DNA of 51,458 bases from an uncultured Dehalococcoidales bacterium. GTDB lineage: Bacteria > Chloroflexota > Dehalococcoidia > Dehalococcoidales > UBA2162. The position numbers and the translations under genes were made by a program. Below the pieces are notes generated by a model, which saw nothing but the letters and a program-made list of their open reading frames with translations, was not told the origin of the DNA and did no database searches. The stretch is taken from contig CAYNFT010000002.1 in assembly GCA_964396535.1 (NCBI GenBank), positions 1 to 51,458 of the forward strand, given 5' to 3'. Shown here in pieces: positions 33,224 through 51,203 of the stretch. Position 1 is the first letter of the stretch. Every line of letters starts with the position of its first letter.

Positions 33224-34000
33224 TTGTCTTTACCGAAGAACCTGAACCGCTTTAAAACTCTGGTGGAAATTATCGCCAGGCTGCGGGCACCTGATGGCTG
33301 TCCCTGGGACAGAAAGCAGACCCATTCTTCCCTGCGGGAAAACCTGCTAGAGGAGTGCTACGAGTTGCTCGAGGCTCTGGATGAAGGTGATTCGGGCAAG
33401 ATTTGTGAAGAGCTGGGTGACCTGATGATGCAGGTCGTCCTTCACACCCAGATTGCCACTGAAGCCGAGGAATTTGAGCTTGGGGATGTGATGAATAGCA
33501 TTAATGCCAAGCTGATTCATCGGCACCCTCATATCTTTGGCTCGCAAAAGGTAAAGGATGCCGAGGAGGTGGCACATAACTGGGAAATTCTCAAGCAGGA
33601 AGAGCGTGGTACTGATACTTCGATACTGTCTAGCGTGCCCAAGCAGATGCCAGCCCTGGGTTACAGCCAGGAAATTCAGCGCCGGGTGGCGCAGCTTGGC
33701 TTTGACTGGGAAGATATTGAGGGTGTCATTGAAAAACTGGCTGAGGAGGTTGGTGAATTTAAGGAAAGCAATGAGGCAGAGAGGGCATGGGAGTTTGGTG
33801 ACCTGCTCTTTACTCTGGTCAATATTGCTCGACGGCTGGGAATTGACTCGGAGGCAGCGCTGAGGGAGGCGAACACTAGATTTTACCGCCGCTTCTCCTG
33901 TATGGAGGAGCTCTGCCGCCAGCGTGGGATAAACTTTGCCGACCTCTCCTTCGATGAGCAAAACGCCCTGTGGGAAGAGGCGAAGAGAGTTAAAGGATAA
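33224..34000 (+). CDS. mazG: nucleoside triphosphate pyrophosphohydrolase MazG
   Basis: 258 aa with tandem MazG domains (CPWDRKQTHSSLRENLLEECYELLEA..., EEVGEF...E.GDLLF). Confidence 0.85.
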   Translation: MSLPKNLNRFKTLVEIIARLRAPDGCPWDRKQTHSSLRENLLEECYELLEALDEGDSGKICEELGDLMMQVVLHTQIATEAEEFELGDVMNSINAKLIHRHPHIFGSQKVKDAEEVAHNWEILKQEERGTDTSILSSVPKQMPALGYSQEIQRRVAQLGFDWEDIEGVIEKLAEEVGEFKESNEAERAWEFGDLLFTLVNIARRLGIDSEAALREANTRFYRRFSCMEELCRQRGINFADLSFDEQNALWEEAKRVKG

Positions 34001-34076
34001 GAGGTTTTTGTAGGCGTATGGCATTATGTTATAATATTAAATTACCTTTGTTTGAAAGTCAGATGGGAGGTGTAAG

Positions 34077-34484
34077 ATGCCTGAAATCCTTTTAGAGCCG
34101 CGAGTCGTTGCTTTGTTAGTAGCTCAAGATGCGTTTCAAGATGACCGTAGTAGAACCCATGTACACGGGATTTTTGATAATATAACTGCTCCGAAGTTTC
34201 CAATAGTTATTAGCTTTATGGTATTTGTTGCCTTTAAAGGTACGAAACAAGGAACTTACCAAGCAATGATTAAGCTTCTTGATTCGCTAGGGAATATAGT
34301 AATTCAAACTGAACAAGTAACTTTTGAGGTAACTGAGTATAAGGGACATACATGGTTTGCAAATTTGGGCGTACGCTTTCCTACTCCTCAGATGTATAGA
34401 ATTGAACTGATTGTTGACGGAATTCCGCGGATCGAGGTGCCGCTAATGGTTCGCCAAGCGGAAATCACTCCCCCGCAAGCATGA
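34077..34484 (+). CDS. hypothetical protein (AT-rich, accessory)
   Basis: 135 aa. It has a GGGAGG RBS and an upstream TGTTATAAT extended -10. I recognise no family. Confidence 0.55.
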   Translation: MPEILLEPRVVALLVAQDAFQDDRSRTHVHGIFDNITAPKFPIVISFMVFVAFKGTKQGTYQAMIKLLDSLGNIVIQTEQVTFEVTEYKGHTWFANLGVRFPTPQMYRIELIVDGIPRIEVPLMVRQAEITPPQA

Positions 34485-34494
34485 GGGGGTTTTT
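34470..34494 (+). terminator. weak rho-independent terminator candidate
   Basis: CCCCC-gcaagcatga-GGGGG followed by TTTTT. The stop codon lies inside the loop. Confidence 0.4.
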
Positions 34495-34524
34495 GATGCT
34501 AGAAATAGGATTTAGAGGTGCAAA

Positions 34525-34773
34525 ATGTATGCAGTCATAGATATAGATTATGAACAGATAAGTTCACCAGCAAAATATATTTTCGTATATGACCCAAATT
34601 TCTTTAATGAACGAATACAAGAAGATGGCACACTTCAAGCTGGATTAGAGGATTTGTCGATATTACTTGAGTTTCTTGAAGATGAAGAAGATATACGAGA
34701 GGGATTGAAAGGTTTGGCTGAGGAGGAGGGCACTATAACCTGGGAGCAGTATCAGCACCAAAGGAAAGAATAG
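34525..34773 (+). CDS. putative antitoxin partner of the RelE/ParE toxin
   Basis: 82 aa, acidic, ending 10 nt before the toxin start. The call rests on position and size only. Confidence 0.5.
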   Translation: MYAVIDIDYEQISSPAKYIFVYDPNFFNERIQEDGTLQAGLEDLSILLEFLEDEEDIREGLKGLAEEEGTITWEQYQHQRKE

Positions 34774-34783
34774 AGGCTTCTAG

Positions 34784-35083
<300 letters not shown>

Positions 35084-35127
35084 GGAGCAGATAAATACTC
35101 CCTGCCCTGTGTAAAGACCATCCTCCC

Positions 35128-36259
35128 TTATCTCCAAGGGTCTACTTCTACCATGCTCTTCAGGCTAAAATCCCCGCCTGCTACGAAGTAAATCATACCT
35201 TCTCCAGCTATTATAATATTGATTTGTGAGGGAGAGCGAAACCGTTTTATCACAGTGTTGCCAGACATTGATAGACGCTCCCGTACAGCCTTCTGAGCCT
35301 GCTGACCTTCCTGAGTCGGAGGGGAAAGTTCAAGGTGCGGTATAGTGAAAGTCTGTACCATATCACTATCCAGCCATTCCTGAACTGTCATACTGCTATT
35401 CTCATAAACAAATTGCCTGAATTGCTCCTTGGTAGTAAAACCGAAGTCTTCCTCGAGCATTTTCGCAGAAAGAGGAGTCAGGAGCACCAGGGCACCACCT
35501 TCGGGTTCTGCATTATCCAGTACCTTCAGGGTGAAATCGGCCACGTTGTAGCCGCACCGCTGACGCAAGCCCCTTCCTTCCCATATGCTGACCACACTGT
35601 CTTCTCGGTTAAAGCCCTTCTCTACATGAAAAGGCTCCCAGGGTATCATAGGGTTATCCACATTCTCGGCAAAGGTCAGACTGTTGTACTGCAGGTTATT
35701 GCCCCAATCACCCATTATCGTGATACCAGGAATTGCGTAGCACAAACAGCGCCCCATCAGTTGCCAGGCCCGTCCAATAGTGGCGTTGGCATGATTGTAA
35801 GGACCCATACAGCCATATCCGGATTCCATACCTATCTCTTTTGCTATTGGTCCGTGAACGACTGCCGCACCGGTGAATGATTGTGCTGAGCTGAAATACG
35901 GGGGTCCTTTCGAGGCCAGACCAAGGAGTACCGGGAGATACTCAGGCTTACACCCCGCCATCACGGTGATAGTGGCAACCTTCTCCACGGTAATATTCTG
36001 TCCCTCACGCTGACCATTGTCTGTCATACCCATCCTGAAGGCTTCTGCCACTATCTCGTCAGGGCGATGGCTGGTTCCTGTCAACATCCTCTTAACATTT
36101 TCCTCCGTGGGAATTACTATTGGTAAGCCGTCAGTCATTTTGTTGTCGAGGAAGTACTGCTGTACTTCATCGTAGGTACCTGGCCATGGGGTTCAGTACA
36201 TTTGTGTAGACCCTTTCTTTCTCAGCGACTGTTGGATTGTAGGAGTTTTTTGATTTCAT
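35128..36259 (-). pseudogene. conserved-looking hypothetical gene with a single-nucleotide frameshift near 36187-36192
   Basis: The tracked ORF 35128-36138 (MTDGLPIVIPTEENV...) stays open upstream as TPWPGTYDEVQQYFLDNK. A well-initiated ORF (GGAGGAGAAAAG ATG at 36259: MKSKNSYNPTVAEKERVYTNVLNP...) runs into it in another frame at the run AACCCCATGG. Confidence 0.55.
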
Positions 36260-36289
36260 CTTTTCTCCTCCTTTTTGACTAAAATATAT

Positions 36290-36311
36290 GCCCCGCAGCT
36301 TGCTGCGGGGC
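36290..36311 (-). terminator. GC-rich hairpin terminator
   Basis: GCCCCGCAGC-tt-GCTGCGGGGC, a 10-bp perfect stem. On the minus strand it is followed by ATATATTTT. Confidence 0.6.
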
Positions 36312-36325
36312 ACCGCTGACCGGCC

Positions 36326-36595
36326 CTACTCAAACATTATCACATTGCGTAGTGCTTCTCCCTTTTCTGTAGACTCAATTGCCTCGTTAATGCGTTCCAG
36401 AGGATAGCGACCAGTGATAAGCTCATCCAACTTGAGGCGTCCCTCCCGGTAAAGCTCCACAAGATGGGGAATATCTATATTCAGCCGGGGTGACCCTCCG
36501 CCACAACTAGTAAGTACTCTCTCACCCCCAACGAAGTCAAACGCTGAAAAGCTTATACTCTCTTTGATTGGTACCAGGCCGATTATGACTGTCAC
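36326..36595 (-). pseudogene. C-terminal remnant of a zinc-type (MDR) alcohol dehydrogenase
   Basis: Only about 89 codons remain: VIIGLVP...FDFVGGERVLTSCGGGSPRLNIDIPHLVELYREGRLKLDELITGRYPLERINEAIESTEKGEALRNVIMFE. This matches the ADH C-terminal consensus. The catalytic and Rossmann domains are absent. Confidence 0.65.
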
Positions 36596-36598
36596 TAT

Positions 36599-36618
36599 TA
36601 AACGAACATCGGGATGTC
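36599..36618. repeat. direct repeat DR1 flanking the catalase segment
   Basis: TAAACGAACATCGGGATGTC, 19/20 identical to 38380-38399 in the same orientation. Confidence 0.8.
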
Positions 36619-36750
36619 TGTCCAGTCATGAGTATAAATATTCGATACCGTTCGGATTTTCAGTTCAATTAAGGTAATTACTGACTTTCTCTATATTTAT
36701 GCGGTAATAAAAACGTATCTCTTGCCGTGCTTTATTAATTTAATTCCGGT

Positions 36751-38259
36751 TTAAGTCGTAGCCTTAGCTCTCTCCTCCTGAGACATATTGGCCAGCTTCT
36801 CCACCTCTTTTACGCTAAGACCGAGACCTTCGACGACGTGGCTACCGTATTCTTTGTCCGCTTTATAGAATATTGCTGCTTGGCGAAGCTGAATCCGTTT
36901 CTGAGCATTGCAGAGATGAGTTGTGATATTACCAATTAGATGTTCTCTGTCTTCATCGGTCATGACCCTACGGTATAGCTCTCCTGCCTGGAAGAAATCG
37001 TCGTTGGGATGGTTGTAAGGCTGACGAGCCGCCTGTCCTGAGACATCAAACGAGGGTTCGGCAACATCGGGTGTTGGTTCTGGGCCGCCGAAGCTATTGG
37101 GGTAATAGTTCGGGCCGTCTCCGCTGTTGTCGTCGAGAGCCATGGAACCATCACGCTGGTAGTAGTTCACGCTGGCGGCCTTCGCCCTGTTTATTGGCAG
37201 CAGGTGGTAATTGGGTCCCAGGCGATGAATGTGGGTATCGTGGTAGGAGAAAAGCCTGCCCTGTAATAGTTTATCCGGCGATGCAGCGATTCCGGGGACA
37301 AAATTGGCAGGAGAAAACGCAGCCTGCTCCACTTCCGCAAAGTAATTCTTAGGATTCTTATTAAGCACCATACGACCGATTGTCATCGGCGGATAGTCAG
37401 CGTGGAACCAGACTTTGGTAATATCAAAGGGGTCAAAGCGGTATTTACCAGCTTCCTCTGGGGTCATAATCTGGACTTCAACGCGCCAGGACGGGTAATC
37501 ACCTTTTTCGATGGTATCGTGGAGGTCCCTTGTAGCGTGGTCCGGGTCCTTCCCCTTCATTTCGGTAGCTTCATCACGTGTCAGATTCTGAATACCCTGC
37601 TCCGTCTTGAAGTGATACTGCACCCAGTAGTATTCGCCTTTTTCATTGTACCACTTAAATGTATGACTGCTGTAGCCGTTCATATGGCGAAATGTTCTGG
37701 GTATCCCACGATCAGAAAAGAGAATAGTGACCTGGTGGACAGATTCTGGGGTAAGAGACAGAAAGTCCCAGAACATGTCTGCATCTTTCAGGTTGGTGCC
37801 CGGGTGACGTTTCTGAGTATGAATGAAATCAGGGAATTTCAGCGGGTCACGAATGAAAAAGACGGGGGTATTGTTTCCAGTCATGTCGTAATTACCTTCT
37901 TCAGTATAGAACTTGACTGCGAATCCGCGAGGGTCTCTCTCCGCGTCCGCCGATCCCTTCTCGCCACCCACAGTAGAAAAGCGTACGAAGACATCCGTAC
38001 GTTTACCGATCTCTGATAGGAACTGGGCTCTGGTGAACTTCGTTACATCGGCAGTAACCTCAAAGTATCCGTGTGCACCGGCACCTTTGGCGTGAACCAC
38101 ACGTTCCGGGATGCGTTCCCGGTCGAAATGGCCGAGTTTTTCCAGCAAATGGGTATCCTGCATTAGGATAGGGCCAGGGATTCCAGCGGTTTTGCTGTTC
38201 TGGTCATTATCGACTGGTGCTCCGAAACCGGTTGTATAGGGTTTCTTTTTCTGCGGCAT
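36751..38259 (-). CDS. katA: monofunctional heme catalase (small-subunit type)
   Basis: 502 aa with [22 protein letters not shown] (active-site His) and [17 protein letters not shown] (proximal Tyr signature). GGAGGA RBS. Confidence 0.92.
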
Positions 38260-38349
38260 TTCAATCCTCCTTTTCAGGGAATTTTTATCTGAAGTAAGGT
38301 GTTCGGGTATTTTGGGAGGACAATAGTGTATTATATTAACATTGTATTG

Positions 38350-38532
38350 TCAATAATGAATCGAGTAGCAAGCTACCACTAAACGAACATGGGGATGTCG
38401 ACATGACCTTAAGAGTGAAAAGATATTCTTCTCATTCGAAATCAATTTCACATTCTGAGTAATCGTTACCTTCATCGGGCAAGCTTTGTGACCAACTCCC
38501 CGGTGGAAATTAGATTTACCATCAGATTCCAT
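38350..38532 (-). pseudogene. possible internal remnant of the same or a related alcohol dehydrogenase (weak)
   Basis: 60 codons. SDGKSNFHRGVGH...VTITQNVKLIS loosely resembles the DG.SRF...H...YTVV.E..V.KI segment of class III-like ADHs. It ends in ...RHPHVRLVV, encoded by DR2; compare RHPDVRLIV, encoded by DR1. Confidence 0.25.
38380..38399. repeat. direct repeat DR2 flanking the catalase segment
   Basis: TAAACGAACATGGGGATGTC, partner of 36599-36618, 1781 nt apart. Confidence 0.8.
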
Positions 38533-38618
38533 AGTTTTGACAATTAGCCTATGATGGTCTTCCCCTTTCTTGGATGATTCGTCTAAAAGTAGGGTTTTTT
38601 CTTACACTCCCATGTCGT

Positions 38619-39296
38619 TTACGCAATCTCCTCCCGCTGTTTCAGAAAAATCTCAAGACGTGGATTGACTGCCAGCATGTGTTGCCGAACCCTAGACAAT
38701 AGGCTCTTCTTGTCATGCATCTTGTAGATGTGTTCGGGAAACGGCCAATTTACAAAGTCCGTTGCGCCGCTTTTTCGGATAAGTTCTTTCCATGCTGGGG
38801 CCTCATCTGTAACAGATGCTACACGCTTCCGAACGGACTCCGGCGGATCGCCGCGTCTCTCACAGTTCTCTTTTGTCTTTTCCTGTAACTCAGCCCAATT
38901 CTCCATCTCGGTGATGCGGCGTAGCGTAGGATTGAGGACTATAATTTCCGTTTCGCCAAAAGCTGTCGCTACATCTGCAACTGCAAGGGAAGAAAGAAGG
39001 ATGGGTGCGTACACCTCAGTCTTAGCGAGATCGCCTTGAAGACCACTGAAGATAATGCCTTGCCATTCTCCGCGCACAGTGAAGAAGAGTACCTTTCCTT
39101 TGGGGGACCATTCGACTCGTTCTTTCCAGTAGCAGGGGATTTCTTGAACTGTATCTCCGAGCGTACGAAGCATAGATTGAAGATCGTCGCGAAATTTAGG
39201 CGGAGCATACAGCTTATCATCATGGTCGCGAGGGCCGTCTTCGCGCAAACGGTAGGAATCAAGTTTTACCAAGTCGTCCCTCAGTAGGGCAGACAA
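38619..39296 (-). CDS. hypothetical protein (start uncertain, possibly truncated)
   Basis: 225 aa. The tracked start is a TTG directly after an in-frame TGA, with no visible RBS. I recognise no motif. Confidence 0.45.
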   Translation of the reverse strand: MSALLRDDLVKLDSYRLREDGPRDHDDKLYAPPKFRDDLQSMLRTLGDTVQEIPCYWKERVEWSPKGKVLFFTVRGEWQGIIFSGLQGDLAKTEVYAPILLSSLAVADVATAFGETEIIVLNPTLRRITEMENWAELQEKTKENCERRGDPPESVRKRVASVTDEAPAWKELIRKSGATDFVNWPFPEHIYKMHDKKSLLSRVRQHMLAVNPRLEIFLKQREEIA

Positions 39297-39404
39297 AGGG
39301 CTTCATTGACATTGAGTTAGCCCAATTCTAAAATGAACACTAGAGGAGGCAAGAGTGTTAGCGCTATGAGGCACAGGGGCAAATATGATTCGAGATATTG
39401 AAGA

Positions 39405-39482
39405 TGGTCGGGGTGAGAGGACTTGAACCTCCGAACCTCTGCGTCCCGAACGCAGCGCTCTACCCAACTGAGCTACACCCCG
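39405..39482 (-). tRNA. tRNA-Pro (anticodon CGG), CCA encoded
   Basis: The minus strand reads CGGGGTG TA GCTC AGTTGGGTA GAGC G CTGCG TTCGGGA CGCAG AGGTTC GGAGG TTCAAGT CCTCT CACCCCG ACCA. The C1-G72 pair and GGAGG/CCTCT T stem are as in bacterial tRNA-Pro. The variable loop appears to be 6 nt. Confidence 0.85.
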
Positions 39483-39527
39483 ATTATTAAATTATTGGCT
39501 TGAATTTTTATTCCATAATATCAACTT

Positions 39528-39571
39528 CAGTGTCCCGAACGTGGCGCGCTACCCAACTGCGCTACGCCCCG
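39528..39571 (-). pseudogene. truncated tRNA-Pro(CGG) 5' piece, copy B
   Basis: CGGGGCG TA GCGC AGTTGGGTA GCGC G CCACG TTCGGGA CACTG, then non-tRNA sequence AAGTTGATATTATGG. The anticodon stem is degenerate. Confidence 0.75.
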
Positions 39572-39595
39572 ACTTTTATGCTATAATATCAACCG

Positions 39596-39639
39596 CAGCG
39601 TCCCGAACGCTGCGCGCTATCCAACTGCGCTACGCCCCG
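39596..39639 (-). pseudogene. truncated tRNA-Pro(CGG) 5' piece, copy A
   Basis: CGGGGCG TA GCGC AGTTGGATA GCGC G CAGCG TTCGGGA CGCTG, then CGGTTGATATTATAG. It sits 68 nt from copy B. Confidence 0.8.
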
Positions 39640-39681
39640 CTGGCGATATTATAAACGGATTTCACCTCTTCAGCAAGGATA

Positions 39682-39908
39682 GGGAGAGTTATGGAGAGGC
39701 GTAGCTTCTAAATAAGTAGTTCTCCTCGTCAGTTGCAGGAGAGACCTAAAAAGGGGAGTGAAAGAGGGGCGAAGTTTCTCAAGTAATGGGGAGTTACAGA
39801 GAGGTGAAACCTATCTAGCAATGGGGAGTTGAAGAGGTGCTTAGCCCCTCTTTCAAAAACTCCTTCCCCTTCCCCTTATTAAGGGGAAGGGGATACAGGG
39901 GATGGGGT
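39682..39908. repeat. modular intergenic repeat, copy R9 (largest composite: about 4 M2-type modules + M1)
   Basis: M2-type units are GGGAGAGTTATGGAGAGGC.., GGGGAGTGAAAGAGGGGCgaaG.., GGGGAGTTACAGAGAGGT.. and GGGGAGTTGAAGAGGTGCttaGCCCCTCTTTC. Then comes CTTCCCCTTCCCCTT-att-AAGGGGAAGGGGATACAGGGGATGGGGT. It ends 12 nt before ATG 39921. Confidence 0.85.
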
Positions 39909-43402: not shown

Positions 43403-45847
43403 ATGGTTTTAGGGAAGACCAAACCCGTAAACATCGAAGATGAAATGCGGAGCTCTTATCTTGACTACGCGATGAGTGTCATCGTTTCCCGTGCTCTGCC
43501 TGATGTGCGGGATGGCTTGAAGCCGGTACAGCGACGCATTCTCTATGCTATGGGTGACATGGGGATTAACCATACTGGCTCTCATAAGAAGAGTGCCCGC
43601 ATTGTTGGCGAGGTGTTAGGTAAGTATCATCCTCATGGTGACAGCTCTGTTTATGATGCGATGGTGCGCATGGCGCAGGATTTCTCAATGCGATATGTTC
43701 TGGTTGACGGACAGGGTAATTTTGGCAGCGTGGATAATGACCCCCCGGCAGCAATGCGTTATACCGAGGCTCGCCTAACCGAGCTTGCTGGACAGATGTT
43801 AGCTGACATTGACAAGGAGACTGTCAACTTCGTGCCCAACTTTGATGATAGCCTTCAGGAACCCTCAGTCCTACCCACTCAGTTGCCCAATTTGCTGCTT
43901 AATGGTAGTTCTGGGATTGCGGTGGGGATGGCGACCAATATTCCCCCCCATAACCTAGGTGAGGTATGTGATGCTATCTCCTATCTCATTGATAACTCGG
44001 GAGCTACGGTTGATGAGCTTACCCAGTTTATCAAGGGACCCGATTTCCCTACCGCTGGTATTATATTAGGCCAGGAGGGAATTAAGAGTGCCTATGCTAC
44101 CGGGCATGGCAGGATAGTGGTTCAGGCTAAGGATTATATTACAGAGGCTTCCGAGACTGGACGTAGCCAGATAGTGGTTGTCGAGCTTCCTTATCAGACT
44201 AATAAGGCGGCTCTGGTGGAGAGAATAGCTGACCTGGTTGCCAGCAAGAAAATCACGGGCATCAGTGAGCTTCGGGATGAGTCGGACCGTCAGGGTATGC
44301 GTATTGTTATTGAACTAAAGAGGGAAGCTCAACCCCAGCAGGTGCGGAACAGCCTGTATAAACATACTGCCATGAAGTCGGCTTTCTTTGTTAACATGCT
44401 GGCACTGGTTGATGGCCAGCCCCGGGTGATTGGCCTTAAAGAGGCGCTTCAGCATTATATAGATTTCCGTCGTGAGGTGATTACTCGGCGCTCCAGGTTT
44501 GAGCTGAAAGGGGCTAAAGCTAGGGCTCATATCCTGGAAGGATTAAGAATCGCACTGGACCAGATAGATAAGGTGATTGCTACTATCCGCAAATCCGAAA
44601 CTGCCGAGAAGGCTCGCCAGAGCCTGATGACGGACTTTGGCTTGACCCAGATTCAGGCGCAGGCAATTCTTGATATGCAGTTGCGCCGGCTGGCTAACCT
44701 TGAGCGGCAAAAGGTGTTTGACGAGTATACCGAGGTTTTGAAAAGCATTTCTTACCTGGAAGACCTTCTGGCTAATCCCAGAAGAGTGCTTCTTCTGATA
44801 AGGGATGAAGTGAAGGAATTAAAGTCTAAGTATGGTGACCCCAGGCGAACCGAAATAAGTGCGCAGGGAGAGGTGGTCTTCCAAGAGGAAGACCTTATCC
44901 CCCATCAACGAGTGGTGGTGACGCTCAGTAATAGGGGATTTGTTAAAAGGGTGCCATCCCAACTCTACACGTTGCAGCATCGTGGTGGGAAGGGTATCAC
45001 TGCTTTTCCAACCAGGGAGAATGATGCGGCCAGGCTTCTGGTAGTGGCTGATACTCATGATAGCCTCCTCTTCTTCACCAACAGGGGCAGGGTTTTCCGT
45101 CTCAAATGTTATGAAATCCCCGCTGGTAGCTCAAGAACGGCTAAAGGGCTGGCGGTGATTAATCTTCTCCCTGTTGTTGAGGATGAGAGGGTAACTGATA
45201 TAGTATCCGTGACCGATTTTACGCCGGATACCTACCTGCTGCTGGCGACTCGCCGCGGTGAGATAAAAAAGACGGCTTCAGACAAGTTTGTTGTGGTGCG
45301 CAGTAGCGGGCTTATCGCTATGGATGTGGAGGAAGGAGATGAGCTGGTGGAAGCACGGTTAGCTACCGACAAGGACGATGTGATGATGATAACTCAAAAA
45401 GGGCAGTCAATCCGGTTTGCTGTATCCAGTCTACGGGCTAGCTTAAGAACCAGCGGTGGAGTAAGTGGGATTCGGCTGGCCTCAGATGACCAGGTAATTG
45501 GCATGGAAGTTGCCTATCCCAAGGACTTCCTTTTAGTTGTTACTGCCAACGGCTTTGGTAAGCTCACTCCAATCAGTAGCTACCCCCGTCAAAAACGCGC
45601 TGGCAGTGGGGTCAGGACTTTTAAGCTTACTGAGAAGACGGATAAAGTGGCTGCTGCCAAGCTTACTTCTCTATCTCAGCAGGTTATGATTATCTCTGCT
45701 GATGGCATTGTTATCCGCACTCCAGCCAAAGAGAAAGACCCCACGAAGGGGATTACCATACAGGGCAGGAGCACCCAGGGGGTGAAACTGATGAAGCTTG
45801 GTGAGGGGGATAGTGTGGTTGCCCTCACCTGCTTTGACGCAACTTAA
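43403..45847 (+). CDS. gyrA: DNA gyrase subunit A
   Basis: 814 aa with [30 protein letters not shown], the catalytic Tyr region [10 protein letters not shown] and C-terminal beta-pinwheel repeats. Confidence 0.95.
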
Positions 45848-45874
45848 TTTAGCTTCTAGTTTATACGTGCAAGC

Positions 45875-47464
45875 CTAATGATAGTCGAGTTTACATTCGG
45901 TAGTGGCGCGTGGGTCAAACTCTAGGCCAAGTGCATCATGAAAAACTGTTTTAGCCGCTTTGTTGACCGCTTTGCGATACTCAAGGTCAGGTACATAGAA
46001 GACATGCCCCTTCAACTTGTTTGCCTCATAGGTATCAAGCCATTTTCCATACGGAAAGAATTCTCTAAGAGGAACAAGCCATTCCGTGCCTATGTCTATC
46101 CAGCAGGGTTCTACATCTTTGTCAATATTCGGTGGCTTAGGTAAGTCAACCCAGAGGTCGTGAAAAGAGGTACGATATTTTTTCGGCAGTTCATCCCAGA
46201 TAAATTGTCGCAGCTCATTTGTTTGCTCCTGTCTTGCACGCTTTGGATATTCAGCGCTCAGCGTGAACAGGTCATGCAGCCTTAGTTCAGGGTCTTCTAC
46301 AGTGTAATTGGCTGTTAGGACTAAGCACCGCTTCAGCAGGTCCCTATTGAGTAACCTTTTGAATAGGGGAGCCAACTCACTGTCAGAGAGACCAAGTGAG
46401 AAAAAGTCGAACTCGTTTATCTTCAAGAAGTCGGGGATTCTGTCAAATCGAAGCCGTTTGTCTCTTCCTTTCTTATCAGGGTTAGTCCAAATGACTTCCA
46501 ATATCGCCTTGACCATGCATTCCAGTGCCCGAACTTTGTGATGATGGTAGATAGCCGGGAACAGTAGTATTTTATTGAGGACTATCTGCTCCAAGTTACT
46601 GGCGCCTGAGCTCTTCATAATAAGATTTCGGTTAGGGAAAACCTTCGGTTCTTGTACAAACCGCTTTTCTTGTTCAATCCGCCTTTGAAAACCCTTAAAC
46701 TTTTTGGGGTCCAGAATCACAGATGAAATAATCACCCTATCCACATCGGCATCAGCCCTGATACCAGTAAAGCGGCAGTCTCGGATTAAGTAATCTAGCT
46801 TGTCTGCGTCGAAGGGTCCGCTAATAATATCGCCCAGGTAGGCAAACTGTCTTAGCTCTCTCGGCTTGCCAATCACAAGACGGGTAACCATCTCTATGCT
46901 CACCTTTTTGTTGTAATAGTTTAAGACATCCTGTAGCAGTCTTTGGAAACGAGGGCTGTCGATAATCAAGTAGGACAGGATTTCACCTGGCTCACGGTCG
47001 TGGAAAAGGTCAATTTCCTTTATACTTTCAAAAGTGTCCTGGAATTTGACCGCTATTAAGTTTTCAGAGAGGTGGGAAAGAAATGAATGCCCCACGTCAT
47101 GCAGTAGGGCGGCAAGGCGTAGCTCTTCTATCTGTGGCTGCTCTTCGCCTAAAGAATGACCTATGTCATCTGCTATTTTAGCTACGCCGAGGCTATGGTC
47201 AAACCTTGTATGGTTCGCTGTTGGGTAGACCAAGTAGGCGAGGGCTGTTTGGTGTATATACCTGAGGCGTTGCACAATGGGCGAATCAAGCAAGAGGTAT
47301 TCGTGAGGTTTCAGTACCTGGTAACCTGAGACAGCTTCTCTGATTACTTTTTCATCATCGGGGGAGGGGTATCTATTTGGATAGTCAGCAGGTATTATAT
47401 CCTCTACCCACTCATTAATTTCCTCTGCCAAGGCATGTAGAGCAGTTTCACCTTCAGTAGGCAC
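45875..47464 (-). CDS. SAMHD1-like HD-domain phosphohydrolase (predicted dNTP triphosphohydrolase-like) with long uncharacterised C-terminal half
   Basis: 529 aa with VQRLRYIHQT...NHTRFDHSLGV, AALLHDVGHSFLSH, FDADKLDYLIRDCRFTG and IYHHHKVRALE. These are the SAMHD1/EF1143-type motifs. The GTG start lies 3 nt after the stop of the 140-aa gene. Confidence 0.75.
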   Translation of the reverse strand: MPTEGETALHALAEEINEWVEDIIPADYPNRYPSPDDEKVIREAVSGYQVLKPHEYLLLDSPIVQRLRYIHQTALAYLVYPTANHTRFDHSLGVAKIADDIGHSLGEEQPQIEELRLAALLHDVGHSFLSHLSENLIAVKFQDTFESIKEIDLFHDREPGEILSYLIIDSPRFQRLLQDVLNYYNKKVSIEMVTRLVIGKPRELRQFAYLGDIISGPFDADKLDYLIRDCRFTGIRADADVDRVIISSVILDPKKFKGFQRRIEQEKRFVQEPKVFPNRNLIMKSSGASNLEQIVLNKILLFPAIYHHHKVRALECMVKAILEVIWTNPDKKGRDKRLRFDRIPDFLKINEFDFFSLGLSDSELAPLFKRLLNRDLLKRCLVLTANYTVEDPELRLHDLFTLSAEYPKRARQEQTNELRQFIWDELPKKYRTSFHDLWVDLPKPPNIDKDVEPCWIDIGTEWLVPLREFFPYGKWLDTYEANKLKGHVFYVPDLEYRKAVNKAAKTVFHDALGLEFDPRATTECKLDYH

Positions 47465-47467
47465 CTG

Positions 47468-47890
47468 TCACGCTACCTTAAGTCTATCTTTTAAGAGCTG
47501 GCTAATATCTTGCAGTTCTTTTTGGTACGGGCCGAGTCTTTCTGCCTCTCGTTTCTTAATCAGGTCTCTATTCTCTTTGCTCATGTTTATGGTCGGATAG
47601 TCCGGGTTTGGCAAACTGACTTCCCTTGAATTGGCCAGCAACTTTATTAGCTGGTCTACCTGCTCACTTTGAGGTGGCATGGGCTCTCGGAAGGTAAAAT
47701 ATATCCACTTCAGTTGAGGAACGCGGTCTCGGTATTTTTGGCAGATTTCATATATCACTCGATGCCATTTATCGGGGTTGCTGTCAAATTTATCTTCTTC
47801 AGTAAGGGCTAGTGCATAGGTCAGAGCATTCTCGTAGGTAGAGAAGGAGGACCTAAACTTCTCGTATTTTTGCAGCTTTTTCTTATCCAT
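47468..47890 (-). CDS. hypothetical 140-aa protein, translationally coupled to the HD gene
   Basis: GGAGGT RBS. The predicted protein is helical and charged (MDKKKLQKYEKFRSSFSTYENALTYALALTEEDKF...). I recognise no family. Confidence 0.6.
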   Translation of the reverse strand: MDKKKLQKYEKFRSSFSTYENALTYALALTEEDKFDSNPDKWHRVIYEICQKYRDRVPQLKWIYFTFREPMPPQSEQVDQLIKLLANSREVSLPNPDYPTINMSKENRDLIKKREAERLGPYQKELQDISQLLKDRLKVA

Positions 47891-47966
47891 AATTAACCTC
47901 CGGTGGGGGCTTATATTTTAATACTTATTCTTCTCATCTGCAACAAGGAATTGTCTTATTAGTTAA

Positions 47967-48009
47967 ATTGTATCATTAAATTGACATATTGTCAATTTAA
48001 TCTTATTAT
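47967..48009. promoter_or_regulatory. back-to-back divergent promoters sharing the palindrome
   Basis: Plus strand: TTGACA 47981-47986, 17 nt, TATTAT 48004-48009. ATG 48019 has no SD, so the transcript is near-leaderless. Minus strand: TTGACA (complement of 47990-47995), 17 nt, TACAAT (complement of 47967-47972), driving the 140-aa/HD operon. Confidence 0.6.
47976..48000. promoter_or_regulatory. 25-bp perfect palindromic operator
   Basis: TTAAATTGACA-tat-TGTCAATTTAA. Extra half-site-like copies lie at TTAAATTG 47963-47970 and TTGTCAA 48009-48015. Confidence 0.7.
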
Positions 48010-48018
48010 TGTCAAGCC

Positions 48019-48345
48019 ATGTCAAAGCGGAAGGGCTCTTCAAGGAAAGACCGACCCAGTGAGATTGGGAAATACCTGACTACCATAAGGGTGAGTCAGG
48101 GGAAAACTCAGCAAGAAATTGCCGATAGAATCGGAAGGGATAAAAGTTGTATCTGCAGAATAGAAAGGGGTCAAAGGGTGCGCCAGTGCCTTCGTGGTCT
48201 CAAACTGTATCAGCTAGCCAAAGCATATGGTGCTCCCATTGATGAAGTTCTGAAAAAGGCAAACTGGCCACAGCTTCTTCTACTGGATACCAGTGAGGAA
48301 GAGAGACAAGAACTAATACGTTTCCTTAAAGAAAGTTTACAGTAA
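48019..48345 (+). CDS. XRE-family helix-turn-helix transcriptional regulator
   Basis: 108 aa with the Cro/C1-type HTH pattern GKYLTTIRVSQGKTQQEIADRIGRDKSCICRIERGQR. Confidence 0.8.
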   Translation: MSKRKGSSRKDRPSEIGKYLTTIRVSQGKTQQEIADRIGRDKSCICRIERGQRVRQCLRGLKLYQLAKAYGAPIDEVLKKANWPQLLLLDTSEEERQELIRFLKESLQ

Positions 48346-48382: not shown

Positions 48383-50212
48383 CTACTGGTGCTTTTGCTG
48401 GCAGGCTGGCTGCCAGCGTTCCAGTCCGCAGGCGTTACAGGCTTCAGTACGGCAGTCAGGGGTTTCTCTACCCACCAGTGAACGCCGGTATTCTCGCTTC
48501 AAGAAGTCACTGGTTACGCCAGTATCAATATGAGCCCAGGGGAGCAGCTCGTCCAGGGAGCGCTGCCGCCGGGCGTAGAAGTCGGGCTCAATGCCAGCCT
48601 CTTCAAAGGCGTGTAACCAGTTTTCGTAGTTAAAGTGTTCGTCCCAGGAATCAAAGGTGCAGCCCAGCTTCCAGGCACGATGGATGACCTGACCCAGTCG
48701 CCTATCTCCTCGTGATAGTGCTGCCTCAAGCAGGCTGGCTTTAGGGTCTGCCCAGGACAACTTGACTCCCTTTCGGCGCAACCCCTGCTTAAGAAGTTCA
48801 TGTTTAGCGCTTAGCCCCTGTTCACTTTCCTGGGCTACCCATTGAAAAGGAGTGTGCGGCTTGGGCACAAAGGTAGACAGGTTGACCCTTATCTGGGGTG
48901 TCCTGCCCTTAGTCATTCTGCCGACTGAACGAACCCTGTTTACCAGATTGACAATATCCTCTATATCACTCATAGTTTCCCCGGGCAAGCCGAGCATAAA
49001 ATATAGCTTAAGGCCTGTCCAGCCCCTATTAAATGCGGCGGTTGCCGTTTTCATGAGTTCCTCTTCAGAGATATTCTTATTGATGGTTCGCCGCAGTCTC
49101 TCGCTTCCCGCCTCAGGGGCGAAGGTTAGCCCTGTCCTCTTACGGGAGGATAGAGAGTCCATCAACTCCACCGAGAAGCTATCAATGTACAGGCTGGGTA
49201 GCGACAGGGCAAGATTAGGGTAGCCGCGGGACAGGCTGGCTAATAGTTCATCAATATTGGGGTAGTCAGTGGTGCTCAGCGAAACCAGCGAGACCTCGCT
49301 GTAGCCGCAGTTGGCAATAAGCTCCCCTATCGCCTGTAGCACCTCCTGCTGGGAGCGCTCACGTACCGGGCGATAGATAATCCCTGCCTGGCAAAAACGG
49401 CAGCCGTGACTGCAACCCCGCTGAATCTCTACTGCTCCGCGGTCGTGAATCACTTCAATGTAGGGAACTACCGGTTTGGTGACCGGGGGAGGCAGCTTGC
49501 TCACTATCCGCCGCTGAATGGTGGGATTGGCTTCAGGCACGGTAGGTGTAATACTTTTAACCAGTCCATCAGGCTGGTAGTCCACCTGATACAGGCTGGG
49601 TACATAGATGCCAGGGATGGTTGCCACCTGGCGAAGTAGTTGTTCTTTAGGGGCTACCCTGCCCTGCCCTTTCCAGTTTCGGAAGCTGTCAAGCAGTTCA
49701 AGCAGTACCTCTTCACCATCCCCGATGACAAAGAAGTCAATAAAGTCAGCCATGGGTTCCGGATTGAGGGCACAGCCACCACCAGCTATTACGAGCGGGT
49801 GGGAATCGTTTCTGTCCGAGGCTAGAACCGGAATTTGAGCCAGGTCAAGCATATTTAAGACATTGGTATAGGTGAGTTCGTAGCCCAGGGAAAAGCCAAT
49901 AATATCAAATTCCTTTAGCGGGCGTCTGGATTCAAGGCTGAAGAGGGGGATACCCTCTGCCCGCATTAGCGCCTCCATATCCGGCCAGGGCGAAAAAGCC
50001 CTTTCGGCAAGGACATCCGGCTGGTTATTGAGCAGCTCGTAGAGGATGGAAAGAGCCATATTGGACATGCCTATTTCATATAAATCAGGGTAGCTGATGG
50101 AAACCCGGAGGGGCGTTTTATCCCAGTCCTTGACTATGCTATTCCACTCCCCGCCGGTATAGCGCGCCGGTCTTTTAACCTGATGCAGTATCTTATCGAG
50201 ATTGGGTAACAA
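48383..50212 (-). CDS. B12-binding-domain radical SAM protein (TIGR03960-like)
   Basis: VKRPARYTGGEWNS and the CxxxCxxC motif in GCSHGCRFCQAG. The start is set at TTG 50212 (AGGGGG cata TTG); the tracked ATG 50299 would overlap the upstream gene by 41 nt. Confidence 0.8.
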   Translation of the reverse strand: MLPNLDKILHQVKRPARYTGGEWNSIVKDWDKTPLRVSISYPDLYEIGMSNMALSILYELLNNQPDVLAERAFSPWPDMEALMRAEGIPLFSLESRRPLKEFDIIGFSLGYELTYTNVLNMLDLAQIPVLASDRNDSHPLVIAGGGCALNPEPMADFIDFFVIGDGEEVLLELLDSFRNWKGQGRVAPKEQLLRQVATIPGIYVPSLYQVDYQPDGLVKSITPTVPEANPTIQRRIVSKLPPPVTKPVVPYIEVIHDRGAVEIQRGCSHGCRFCQAGIIYRPVRERSQQEVLQAIGELIANCGYSEVSLVSLSTTDYPNIDELLASLSRGYPNLALSLPSLYIDSFSVELMDSLSSRKRTGLTFAPEAGSERLRRTINKNISEEELMKTATAAFNRGWTGLKLYFMLGLPGETMSDIEDIVNLVNRVRSVGRMTKGRTPQIRVNLSTFVPKPHTPFQWVAQESEQGLSAKHELLKQGLRRKGVKLSWADPKASLLEAALSRGDRRLGQVIHRAWKLGCTFDSWDEHFNYENWLHAFEEAGIEPDFYARRQRSLDELLPWAHIDTGVTSDFLKREYRRSLVGRETPDCRTEACNACGLERWQPACQQKHQ

Positions 50213-50258
50213 TATGCCCCCTGTGCCATTATACTTGAATCTGGGGGAACAAGACACC

Positions 50259-51203
50259 CTACTGTTGCGTTGAGAGTAATGGTTCGGAAAGTAAATCACC
50301 TACGAATAACTCCAGATTAGCAGTGATTCTAACAATTTCTTCACGTGTCGGCTGGGGAACATAGCCATGAACCAATTTGCTCCTCAATTTATAGCATGTG
50401 GTGAAGAACTCGTATGGTTTCTGTCCACCGTATTTACGATTGGCAAGACGCTTCGCAAGTTTTCGGCCTGCTTGTCCAATCGATTCTTTGTCTAGTGATT
50501 GAAGTGAACCGATGAGCGAATCCTTCTCCTTAGATGAAAGTACGGAAGACGCTTTAGTGAGATGAATTAATTCTTTAAGATGCTCCAGAACTATTTCTGA
50601 CCGTGAAGCTGGCTCTAAGAGTGTTTCCACGGCCATCATGAGCATTACGAAATGAGCATCGATTGACTTTTGAAAAAAAGATGTGCCAAAAAGGTCGAAA
50701 GCAAGGCGCTGTTGGTCAGATAAACTAGGATTATGATCAAGTGCAAGCCCTACCGCTTGAATAAATCGCTCTTTATTCTTAATTACGCTAGGTTTTGCTT
50801 GAACGGAAACAAATTTTATGGGTGGTTCGTTCTCAAATATCATCAACCCATGGACGTCATTAAGAATATGTACTCCCGTTCGCTTTCCAAGCATTTCTAA
50901 ACCAGCAGTTGTAATAGCACTCCGAGGTGCACGTTCTCCAAAGTCAGCTCCAATGTGGAGCCGCGCAAAAGCTAAAATCAAAACATCTTTACAGTGAAGT
51001 CCTGCATTCCAAGCCTCTTCTGGTGATGCATAATTATCACCACGAAGAATTAGTTCATGGGCTTTTTCAATTGGAGTATCTACTTGATTTGACTTAAGAG
51101 CAATATCGGATCCCATATATTTCCCAATTGTTAACTCAGACGAGGTAATCCCGATGGAATACTCATCCGGAAGGTGGAATCGAATTCTAAAACTGAAGGA
51201 CAT
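50259..51203 (-). CDS. hypothetical protein with C-terminal HEPN-like domain (Rx4H motif)
   Basis: 314 aa and AT-rich. The C-terminal helical domain contains CYKLRSKLVHGY (R-x4-H). It is preceded by helices (RLAFDLFGTSFF...AHFVMLMMAVETLLE) and followed by ITANLELFVGDLL. Confidence 0.6.
   Translation of the reverse strand: MSFSFRIRFHLPDEYSIGITSSELTIGKYMGSDIALKSNQVDTPIEKAHELILRGDNYASPEEAWNAGLHCKDVLILAFARLHIGADFGERAPRSAITTAGLEMLGKRTGVHILNDVHGLMIFENEPPIKFVSVQAKPSVIKNKERFIQAVGLALDHNPSLSDQQRLAFDLFGTSFFQKSIDAHFVMLMMAVETLLEPASRSEIVLEHLKELIHLTKASSVLSSKEKDSLIGSLQSLDKESIGQAGRKLAKRLANRKYGGQKPYEFFTTCYKLRSKLVHGYVPQPTREEIVRITANLELFVGDLLSEPLLSTQQ

Follow-up and report, generated by a model that had tools for sequence, protein, structure and literature searches.

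A conserved gene pair of a small protein and a SAMHD1-like HD phosphohydrolase in Dehalococcoidales as a candidate module of genetic conflict

Depletion of deoxynucleoside triphosphates (dNTPs) by dNTPases is an established antiviral strategy, represented by human SAMHD1, bacterial defence dGTPases and the Clover system, and self-protection from such enzymes is understood in few cases only. A locus in an uncultured Dehalococcoidales bacterium (assembly GCA_964396535.1) raises the question of how a bacterial SAMHD1-like enzyme might be kept in check. It lies within positions 1 to 51,458 of contig CAYNFT010000002.1, the whole stretch of 51,458 nucleotides that was analysed and is referred to below as the window. 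The locus comprises a gene for an HD protein resembling dNTP triphosphohydrolases of the SAMHD1/EF1143 type (529 aa, GTG start; 45875–47464, minus strand), a gene for a 140-aa small protein of an unnamed family (47468–47890, minus strand), and, divergent from the latter, a gene for an XRE-family helix-turn-helix (HTH) regulator of 108 aa (48019–48345, plus strand). An earlier reading of the DNA letters alone, hereafter the original prediction, had proposed that a potentially toxic dNTPase is paired here with a small co-translated partner under a dedicated repressor, an architecture that it did not recognise from described defence systems. Homology searches, structure modelling and comparison of gene neighbourhoods indicate that the gene pair is real, broadly conserved and unnamed. 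As to its role, we favour, with a probability of roughly 0.5, a three-part, toxin–antitoxin-like regulated dNTPase module for genetic conflict.

Conservation of the gene pair

Sequence comparison shows the 140-aa open reading frame (ORF) to be a genuine gene that is conserved. Close homologues number 47, with 66–94% identity and all of about 140 aa, and a profile search against 1.84 billion representatives (clusters at 50% identity) collected 519 proteins of the family at E ≤ 1e-3; sizes range from 70 to 219 aa among the best 150 of these 519 matches. Third codon positions account for most differences from relatives, with 27, 21 and 76 differences at positions 1, 2 and 3, respectively, in the comparison with locus L004 (compared loci are cited by their L numbers), and the ORF thus has both homologues and a coding signal. 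The original prediction had been unable to assign it to a family, and the databases agree: no match was obtained in Pfam, PADLOC or NCBIfam (E ≤ 1), in PHROGs or among PDB sequences, and none of the small-family homologues carries a Pfam domain or a name.

The association of the two genes extends far beyond the window. In relatives whose HD proteins are 82%, 52% and 50% identical to that of the window, a small-family gene lies directly upstream of the HD gene, and the two proteins diverge together: in L008, the small protein is 39% identical to its window counterpart (E 2e-35) and the HD protein 52% identical. The small gene precedes the HD gene also in L001, L006, L009, L090, L091, L165, L167 and L169, as it does in L008. 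Ten distant genome loci, with HD proteins of 29–50% identity, were drawn from Dehalococcoidia, Terriglobia/Acidobacteriaceae, Planctomycetota, Fimbriimonadaceae and two records titled Proteobacteria and delta proteobacterium; a small-family gene stands directly upstream in all ten. A set of 72 metagenome loci was found via the small protein, and the HD gene comes next in 53 of the 64 that had enough downstream sequence to judge. Plasmid relatives, such as those on Sphingobium pCFD-2-1 and Rhizobium pRheCIAT894c, were found only through the HD gene; they have an ORF of 134–144 aa located 2–46 nt upstream in four of four cases, and these small ORFs carry the loop motif described below in the forms PNPSY, PNPTY and DDPEY (hhalign probability 58.6%, E 9.5e-5). 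No small-family partner accompanies some 70 shorter HD homologues, which are mostly archaeal. Judged from these neighbourhoods, the pairing is what defines a widespread family, present in at least five phyla and on plasmids, and the link that the original prediction had drawn from a single locus recurs across distant genomes, metagenomes and plasmids. [quoted passage not shown]

The two genes are also tightly joined. In the window, 3 nt separate the stop codon of the small gene from the GTG start of the HD gene, in the same frame (coding strand TGA-CAG-GTG; 47462–47470, minus strand); this junction can be read directly from the sequence, as the original prediction had read it, and its layout is that of translational coupling. 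L001 and L006 share the TGA-CAG-GTG junction; in L008, L009 and L091 the two genes directly adjoin each other, and the ORF ends abut or overlap in most loci compared. A single read-through gene, conceivable from the shared frame in the window, was considered and rejected: other lineages have out-of-frame overlaps of the genes, which therefore encode two separate proteins, and the models show two separate folds.

Several loci depart from the pairing. In L100, a resolvase-bearing insert follows the small gene. In L151–L164, on contigs resembling those of the Candidate Phyla Radiation (CPR) and DPANN lineages, a divergent orphan subfamily of the small gene is found next to ftsZ, uvrB, rpsO/pnp and ribosomal genes; its members (e.g., L152 792–1205, L155 6953–7363 and L160 339–788) keep the FDWDGPYP core, have a degenerate loop motif and are accompanied by no HD gene. 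Two further orphans lie on phage-like contigs. One (L005 10001–10423) occurs with RecT, DUF5131 and an integrase, and DNA similarity of this contig to the window is limited to the small gene (window 47901–47472); the other is L089 4257–4652 (phrog_1499, E 9e-77; transposase-type PHROG). In assembly GCA_042575855.1 the pair is split: after the XRE and small genes (L004 10001–11536) come a tyrosine integrase, a Fic protein and further genes, and the HD gene is located on another contig (L007 5250–6854), beside gyrA and lacking an upstream small gene. The split is due either to a mobile element or to an artefact of assembly or binning. HD remnants were looked for in L004 and L005 and none were found, which marks the small genes of both loci as true orphans.

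The enzyme, its partner and the control region

The HD protein contains the Pfam domains HD (E 3.4e-10) and HD_assoc_2 (E 5.5e-8), and its best relatives among PDB sequences are Aquifex 2HEK (E 8.8e-26; 6.9e-46 by profile) and SAMHD1 (E 1e-21). Its AlphaFold2 (AF2) model, built with 65 homologues, reached a predicted local distance difference test score (pLDDT) of 94.8 and a predicted template modelling score (pTM) of 0.93. Foldseek retrieved human, mouse and fungal SAMHD1 (9mr6) and Enterococcus faecalis EF1143 (2o6i) with E of about 1e-16, and superpositions gave template modelling (TM) scores of 0.58–0.74 across 500–550 aligned columns. The model thus assigns the protein the full SAMHD1/EF1143-type fold. 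The roughly 250 residues that the original prediction had set apart as unrecognised turn out to be the rest of this fold, because the whole 529 aa superpose on SAMHD1 and EF1143; a new domain in the C-terminal half was rejected on the same full-length superposition on SAMHD1.

The four motifs from which a SAMHD1/dNTPase had originally been recognised are present and lie at invariant columns among the 65 homologues, as do the metal-binding and catalytic residues of the H..HD..D site (H90, H122, D123, H131 and D221). K39 and Q65 are likewise invariant, and conservation of D60 and R68 is 90% or higher. A HMMER alignment pairs K39, D60, Q65 and R68 with SAMHD1 allosteric-site positions, which we take to be K116, D137, Q142 and R145 in SAMHD1 numbering, i.e., guanine-nucleotide allosteric site 1. 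The substrate-pocket residues also align with SAMHD1 and EF1143. Since the metal-binding and catalytic residues and the guanine-nucleotide site are kept, the protein is probably an active oligomer that hydrolyses dNTPs. The window enzyme is therefore like SAMHD1, EF1143 and Aquifex 2HEK (COG1078-type) in its whole fold, H..HD..D site, substrate pocket and allosteric residues; those enzymes, however, have no known dedicated small partner gene and no dedicated divergent repressor, whereas the window module has both. The SAM domain is a further point of difference.

Comparison with the defence families gave a different picture from that with SAMHD1. The PADLOC dGTPase model (PDLC02374) covers the HD protein over just 53 of its 395 model positions (72–124; 29 bits), and the 14 bits obtained with NCBIfam NF041026 fall short of its cut-off of 400; seven relatives of the HD protein are likewise without a full-length defence dGTPase match in PADLOC or NCBIfam. 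On these profile comparisons, the HD protein falls outside the known defence dGTPase family and into a different clade. Neither Pfam nor the AF2 model reveals an added nuclease domain in the window protein. The protein also matches phrog_35128 (E 5.8e-21), a family with a function-less label, and some phages therefore encode SAMHD1-like HD proteins. The HD relatives on plasmids are longer, at 656–829 aa (L170 4953–7373, L171 4830–7319, L172 3956–5926 and L173 3935–6412). Their additional C-terminal stretch, about 250 residues long, ends in GGE.DL...(V/L)IENK in L170 and L171, resembling a PD-(D/E)xK nuclease, and no Pfam domain was found in this stretch.

The small protein was modelled with a pLDDT of 85.5 and a pTM of 0.78, and a Foldseek search of this model against PDB and BFVD returned nothing below E = 1. 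The conserved core of the family consists of a strand, a helix and a loop and can be written F..(W.G)P.P.S..L..L...[N/S/D]P.[Y/F]. Motif counts define the loop as [N/S/D]P.[Y/F], not strictly NP.Y, and this loop is the lowest-confidence part of the model of the protein on its own.

The 128 nt between the small gene and the XRE gene (47891–48018) form a divergent control region with direct and inverted repeats, among them half-site repeats, and two back-to-back sigma-70-like promoter sites, which score 11/12 on each strand and have their −35 boxes at 47981 (plus strand) and 47995 (minus strand). A perfect palindrome, AATTGACA-TAT-TGTCAATT (47979–47997), overlaps the −35 boxes of both promoter-like sites and occurs once in the window, against 0.01 occurrences expected by chance. 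Its core, TTGACA-N3-TGTCAA, is invariant in L001, L002 and L004, and conserved blocks and a GGAGGT ribosome-binding site are found in the control regions of relatives. The XRE protein matches Pfam HTH_31 (PF13560; E 2e-7, 31.6 bits, cut-off 27) and HTH_3 (PF01381; E 2.7e-6, 27.7 bits, cut-off 23) and also PHROG transcriptional repressors. The palindrome is accordingly placed for a putative XRE operator, at which the divergent XRE protein probably represses both promoters.

The divergent XRE gene and the palindromic control region thus appear as originally described, and the idea of a dedicated XRE repressor stood in part: it applies to the window and its close clade, but other lineages have other HTH regulators. 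Orthologues of the window XRE protein are confined to L001–L004 and L006, the copy in L006 having previously been uncalled as a gene. A different divergent HTH_3 protein occupies this position in L165 and an XRE-like divergent gene in L016; L008, L009 and L012 have a same-strand, excisionase-like HTH gene of 80 aa, and L018, L171 and L173 have MerR-like genes. Because lineages outside the close clade use these other regulators, the conserved unit consists of two genes plus a swappable regulator.

Genetic conflict weighed against other roles

What could such a unit do? In the module that we favour, the translationally coupled small protein would be a dedicated partner that binds the enzyme, probably via the [N/S/D]P-x-[Y/F] loop, and keeps it from acting as long as the cell is uninfected. 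If the partner were lost or displaced, through phage-induced shut-off, proteolysis or binding of a trigger, the freed enzyme would deplete dNTPs and halt replication of the invader's DNA. We infer each of these elements, i.e., the physical binding, its inhibitory direction, the dNTPase activity and the defence role. The toxin–antitoxin likeness is drawn from the layout, with the partner gene first, a coupled stop and start, a divergent HTH gene with its palindrome, and regulators swapped between lineages. The module as a whole is suggested by the strict pairing and co-divergence of the two proteins together with relocation of the block, its low GC content, its defence neighbours, the orphans in phage-like DNA and the precedent of Clover.

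The base composition and mobility of the locus are consistent with an accessory module. The GC content of the module is 0.41–0.47 compared with 0.50–0.51 in gyrA and 0.52–0.55 in the radical SAM gene on the other side, in agreement with the higher AT content that had been noted from spot counts. In L006, the whole three-gene block is relocated between mazG and apgM, and the slots differ among close relatives. Conflict-type genes were recorded beside several members: Septu PtuA/PtuB (E 9e-174 and 2e-111) on a Sphingobium plasmid; NucC, a WYL protein and a nucleotidyltransferase on a Desulfosarcina plasmid; insertion sequence (IS) elements on a Mycobacterium plasmid; in L010, a complete type I restriction-modification system; in L090, a methyltransferase and a ResIII protein (type III-like restriction-modification) with a large helicase; and in L091, a solo Cas1. 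In a count over 140 neighbouring ORFs of 18 loci, integrases appeared three times and PIN, AAA_21, DNA_gyraseB and DNA_pol3_beta twice each. As a listing of cases, the Septu, NucC with WYL, restriction-modification and Cas1 examples clearly stand in a defence neighbourhood, the context for which the original prediction had proposed a test of enrichment, but many other copies are located among housekeeping genes near the replication origin. The orphan small genes in the phage-like loci L005 and L089 would fit antitoxin-type counter-defence, for which DarTG1 is a precedent (PMC11825919).

The proposal can be carried further. The small protein may have a new fold and gate a SAMHD1-clade dNTPase through its loop, the phage orphans may serve as counter-defence, and the placement beside gyrA, gyrB and dnaN may reflect coupling to replication or topology stress. 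In this full form the idea is possible but doubtful; if true, it would describe a prokaryotic counterpart of SAMHD1 cell-cycle control.

A number of observations weigh against a conflict role. The orphan subfamily amid housekeeping genes implies that the small fold is not exclusively an HD partner. IMG/VR scans with two small-subfamily alignments recovered no viral contig, and a tblastn search of GenBank phages and PLSDB plasmids with a small-family member gave no match. PADLOC (v2) recognised neither protein as a defence component, save for the 53-residue match to the HD motif. The genes abut gyrA, gyrB or dnaN in Chloroflexota, in Acidobacteriota-like contigs and in Planctomycetota, often convergently and 0–28 nt apart, and within Chloroflexota the module stays origin-proximal at HD identities from 39% to 87%, with the exact slot varying. 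Such origin-proximal persistence looks like long vertical retention, which is unusual for defence systems.

Owing to this retention and to the abutment in three phyla, a replication-linked housekeeping role is a live rival and the main one. Under this explanation, the pair provides replication-coupled control of the dNTP pool: the enzyme keeps dNTPs low in non-replicating slow growers, like SAMHD1 in non-cycling cells, and the small protein tunes it to replication status. The positions of the genes speak for it. The HD gene runs convergently towards gyrA in the window, in L007 and, with one gene between, in L001, and towards gyrB in L008, L012 and L018 (Planctomycetota); L138 and L141–L143 have dnaN immediately upstream and L014 has it immediately downstream, and dnaA is at most about 6 kb from the module in six loci. 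At every divergence sampled in Chloroflexota, the pair is found within a few kb of dnaA, obg, nadD, mazG, gyrB or gyrA. The two counts each for DNA_gyraseB and DNA_pol3_beta among the neighbouring ORFs and the lack of a PADLOC match suit a housekeeping role as well. On the other hand, the slots differ in close relatives, so the synteny is not fixed, and the same region of the window holds other variable inserts, namely a catalase gene together with tRNA-Pro, and an AT-rich ORF that weakly matches HEPN_AbiU2. Many members reside on plasmids or beside Septu, NucC, restriction-modification genes, integrases and transposases; the family is small for a housekeeping function, at 519 cluster representatives out of 1.84 billion proteins; and dedicated, swappable HTH regulators are typical of accessory modules. 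The context is therefore mixed, its conflict-type and origin-proximal patterns not fully reconciled, and we regard the housekeeping explanation as unlikely, although it is the one to be taken most seriously among the rivals.

A second rival retains the conflict module and reverses the sign of its control, so that the small protein is a sensor or activator that perceives a phage cue and switches the dNTPase on. Strict pairing and co-divergence would suit any obligate subunit, and an enzyme that has retained a nucleotide allosteric site of its own may do without a protein inhibitor. The HD gene of GCA_042575855 is moreover tolerated on a contig (L007) away from the small gene (L004); that genome, however, still has the small gene. 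Orphan small genes in the phage-like L005 and L089 are hard to explain for an activator, and the gene order and coupling resemble those of antitoxin–toxin pairs. Activation thus seems quite improbable, and the inhibitory partner of the favoured module is preferred.

It is less probable still that the small protein is a winged-helix DNA-binding regulator or a nucleoid-type protein, co-transcribed with the enzyme and making no contact with it. The order of helices and strands in its model is winged-helix-like, and the best non-significant Foldseek matches come from the winged-helix group (SarA, MarR-like, BusR and a forkhead domain), but all of these have E ≥ 1.3 and a probability ≤ 0.18. The window copy is basic, with an isoelectric point (pI) of 9.06, whereas the family is mostly acidic, with a median pI of 5.75, which favours protein binding over DNA binding. 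Orphan copies amid housekeeping genes could be reconciled with such a regulator; a separate HTH regulator is, however, already present at most loci, and strict adjacency to one HD subfamily across phyla, with genes that abut or overlap, points to a stoichiometric partner. Similarly improbable is an HD enzyme that is a nuclease or a hydrolase of NTPs or signalling nucleotides: the HD superfamily is catalytically diverse, and the D..ExK-like end of the additional C-terminal residues in the plasmid relatives hints at nucleic-acid cleavage in that branch, but the whole fold and the substrate and allosteric pocket residues of the window protein align with the dNTPases SAMHD1 and EF1143, and it is without the added nuclease domain.

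Known systems and the surroundings of the locus

The nearest relatives of the module in concept are the stand-alone defence dGTPase and Clover, and by the sequence comparisons above it belongs to neither. The stand-alone anti-phage dGTPase, reportedly described by Tal et al. in 2022, is also an HD-superfamily (d)NTP triphosphohydrolase and has the same proposed outcome, dNTP depletion, but it is a single gene of another clade, whereas the window has an obligate pair with a regulator. Phage T7 Gp1.2 is a small protein that binds and blocks Escherichia coli Dgt; it is a counter-measure of the phage, and its gene does not accompany that of the enzyme. It resembles the proposed window pair in that a small protein acts on a dNTP triphosphohydrolase, although no homology between Gp1.2 and the window small protein was detected, and the latter matched no PHROG family and no viral structure. 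Three-component type II toxin–antitoxin systems offer a likeness of layout: a small first gene coupled to a larger effector, a divergent XRE gene with a palindrome, a regulator swapped between lineages, and orphans of the first gene in phage-like DNA. No known toxin–antitoxin family in Pfam, PADLOC or NCBIfam matches either window protein.

Clover comes closest to the proposed mechanism. Its dNTPase CloA, an octamer related to the Dgt-type defence dGTPase, is toxic alone and is restrained by its partner CloB, a Pol-beta-type nucleotidyltransferase that makes the inhibitory p3diT and whose gene was cloned downstream of that of CloA (PMC12265719). Both systems thus comprise two genes, for a potentially toxic dNTPase and, if the window pair works as we suppose, a restraining partner. 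The window partner differs in being a protein of 140 aa encoded upstream, with no enzymatic motif and no known fold, and the window enzyme is of another clade. No Pfam, NCBIfam or PADLOC match at E ≤ 1 and no fold match identifies the small protein as a Pol-beta nucleotidyltransferase. Because Clover works in this way (PMC12265719), there is now a precedent for the restraint of a toxic dNTPase by a partner, and the novelty that the original prediction had claimed for this architecture among defence systems holds for the particular pair, which is absent from PADLOC v2, but not for the principle.

The module joins the closest bacterial relatives of SAMHD1 to a dedicated small protein without a known fold. 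Should that protein prove to be a gate, it would represent a second answer to dNTPase toxicity, mechanistically different from the nucleotide signal of Clover, and a tractable bacterial model for the protein regulation of SAMHD1-type enzymes. The association with gyrase genes and dnaN could in addition connect dNTP control to replication status.

Downstream of the HD gene, gyrA (43403–45847, plus strand) runs towards the module, and the convergent stop codons are separated by a 27-nt spacer (45848–45874), the distance given originally. No terminator-like hairpin was found within this spacer, and the closest minus-strand site of terminator-like form (45753–45738) falls within the 3′ end of gyrA, so the HD and gyrA transcripts may overlap in antisense. 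On the other side of the module, the radical SAM gene (48383–50299, minus strand) is overlapped at its start by 41 nt of a 314-aa ORF (50259–51203, minus strand), which is AT-rich (GC 0.39–0.43). This ORF has a sub-threshold Pfam match to HEPN_AbiU2 (E 7.5e-4; 19.5 bits, cut-off 26.8), and PADLOC gave no match for it; on this sequence similarity, it may be a second accessory or abortive-infection-like gene near the module.

The slot between mazG and apgM is also occupied in the window (34000–39800), where it contains a catalase gene (36751–38259), a tRNA-Pro gene (39405–39482), which was the sole match in an Rfam search of the window, and two family-less ORFs (35128–36138 and 38619–39296). In L001, mazG and apgM are adjacent, and in L006 and L165 the slot is filled by the XRE/small/HD block. 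It is a variable insertion hotspot near the replication-origin gene cluster.

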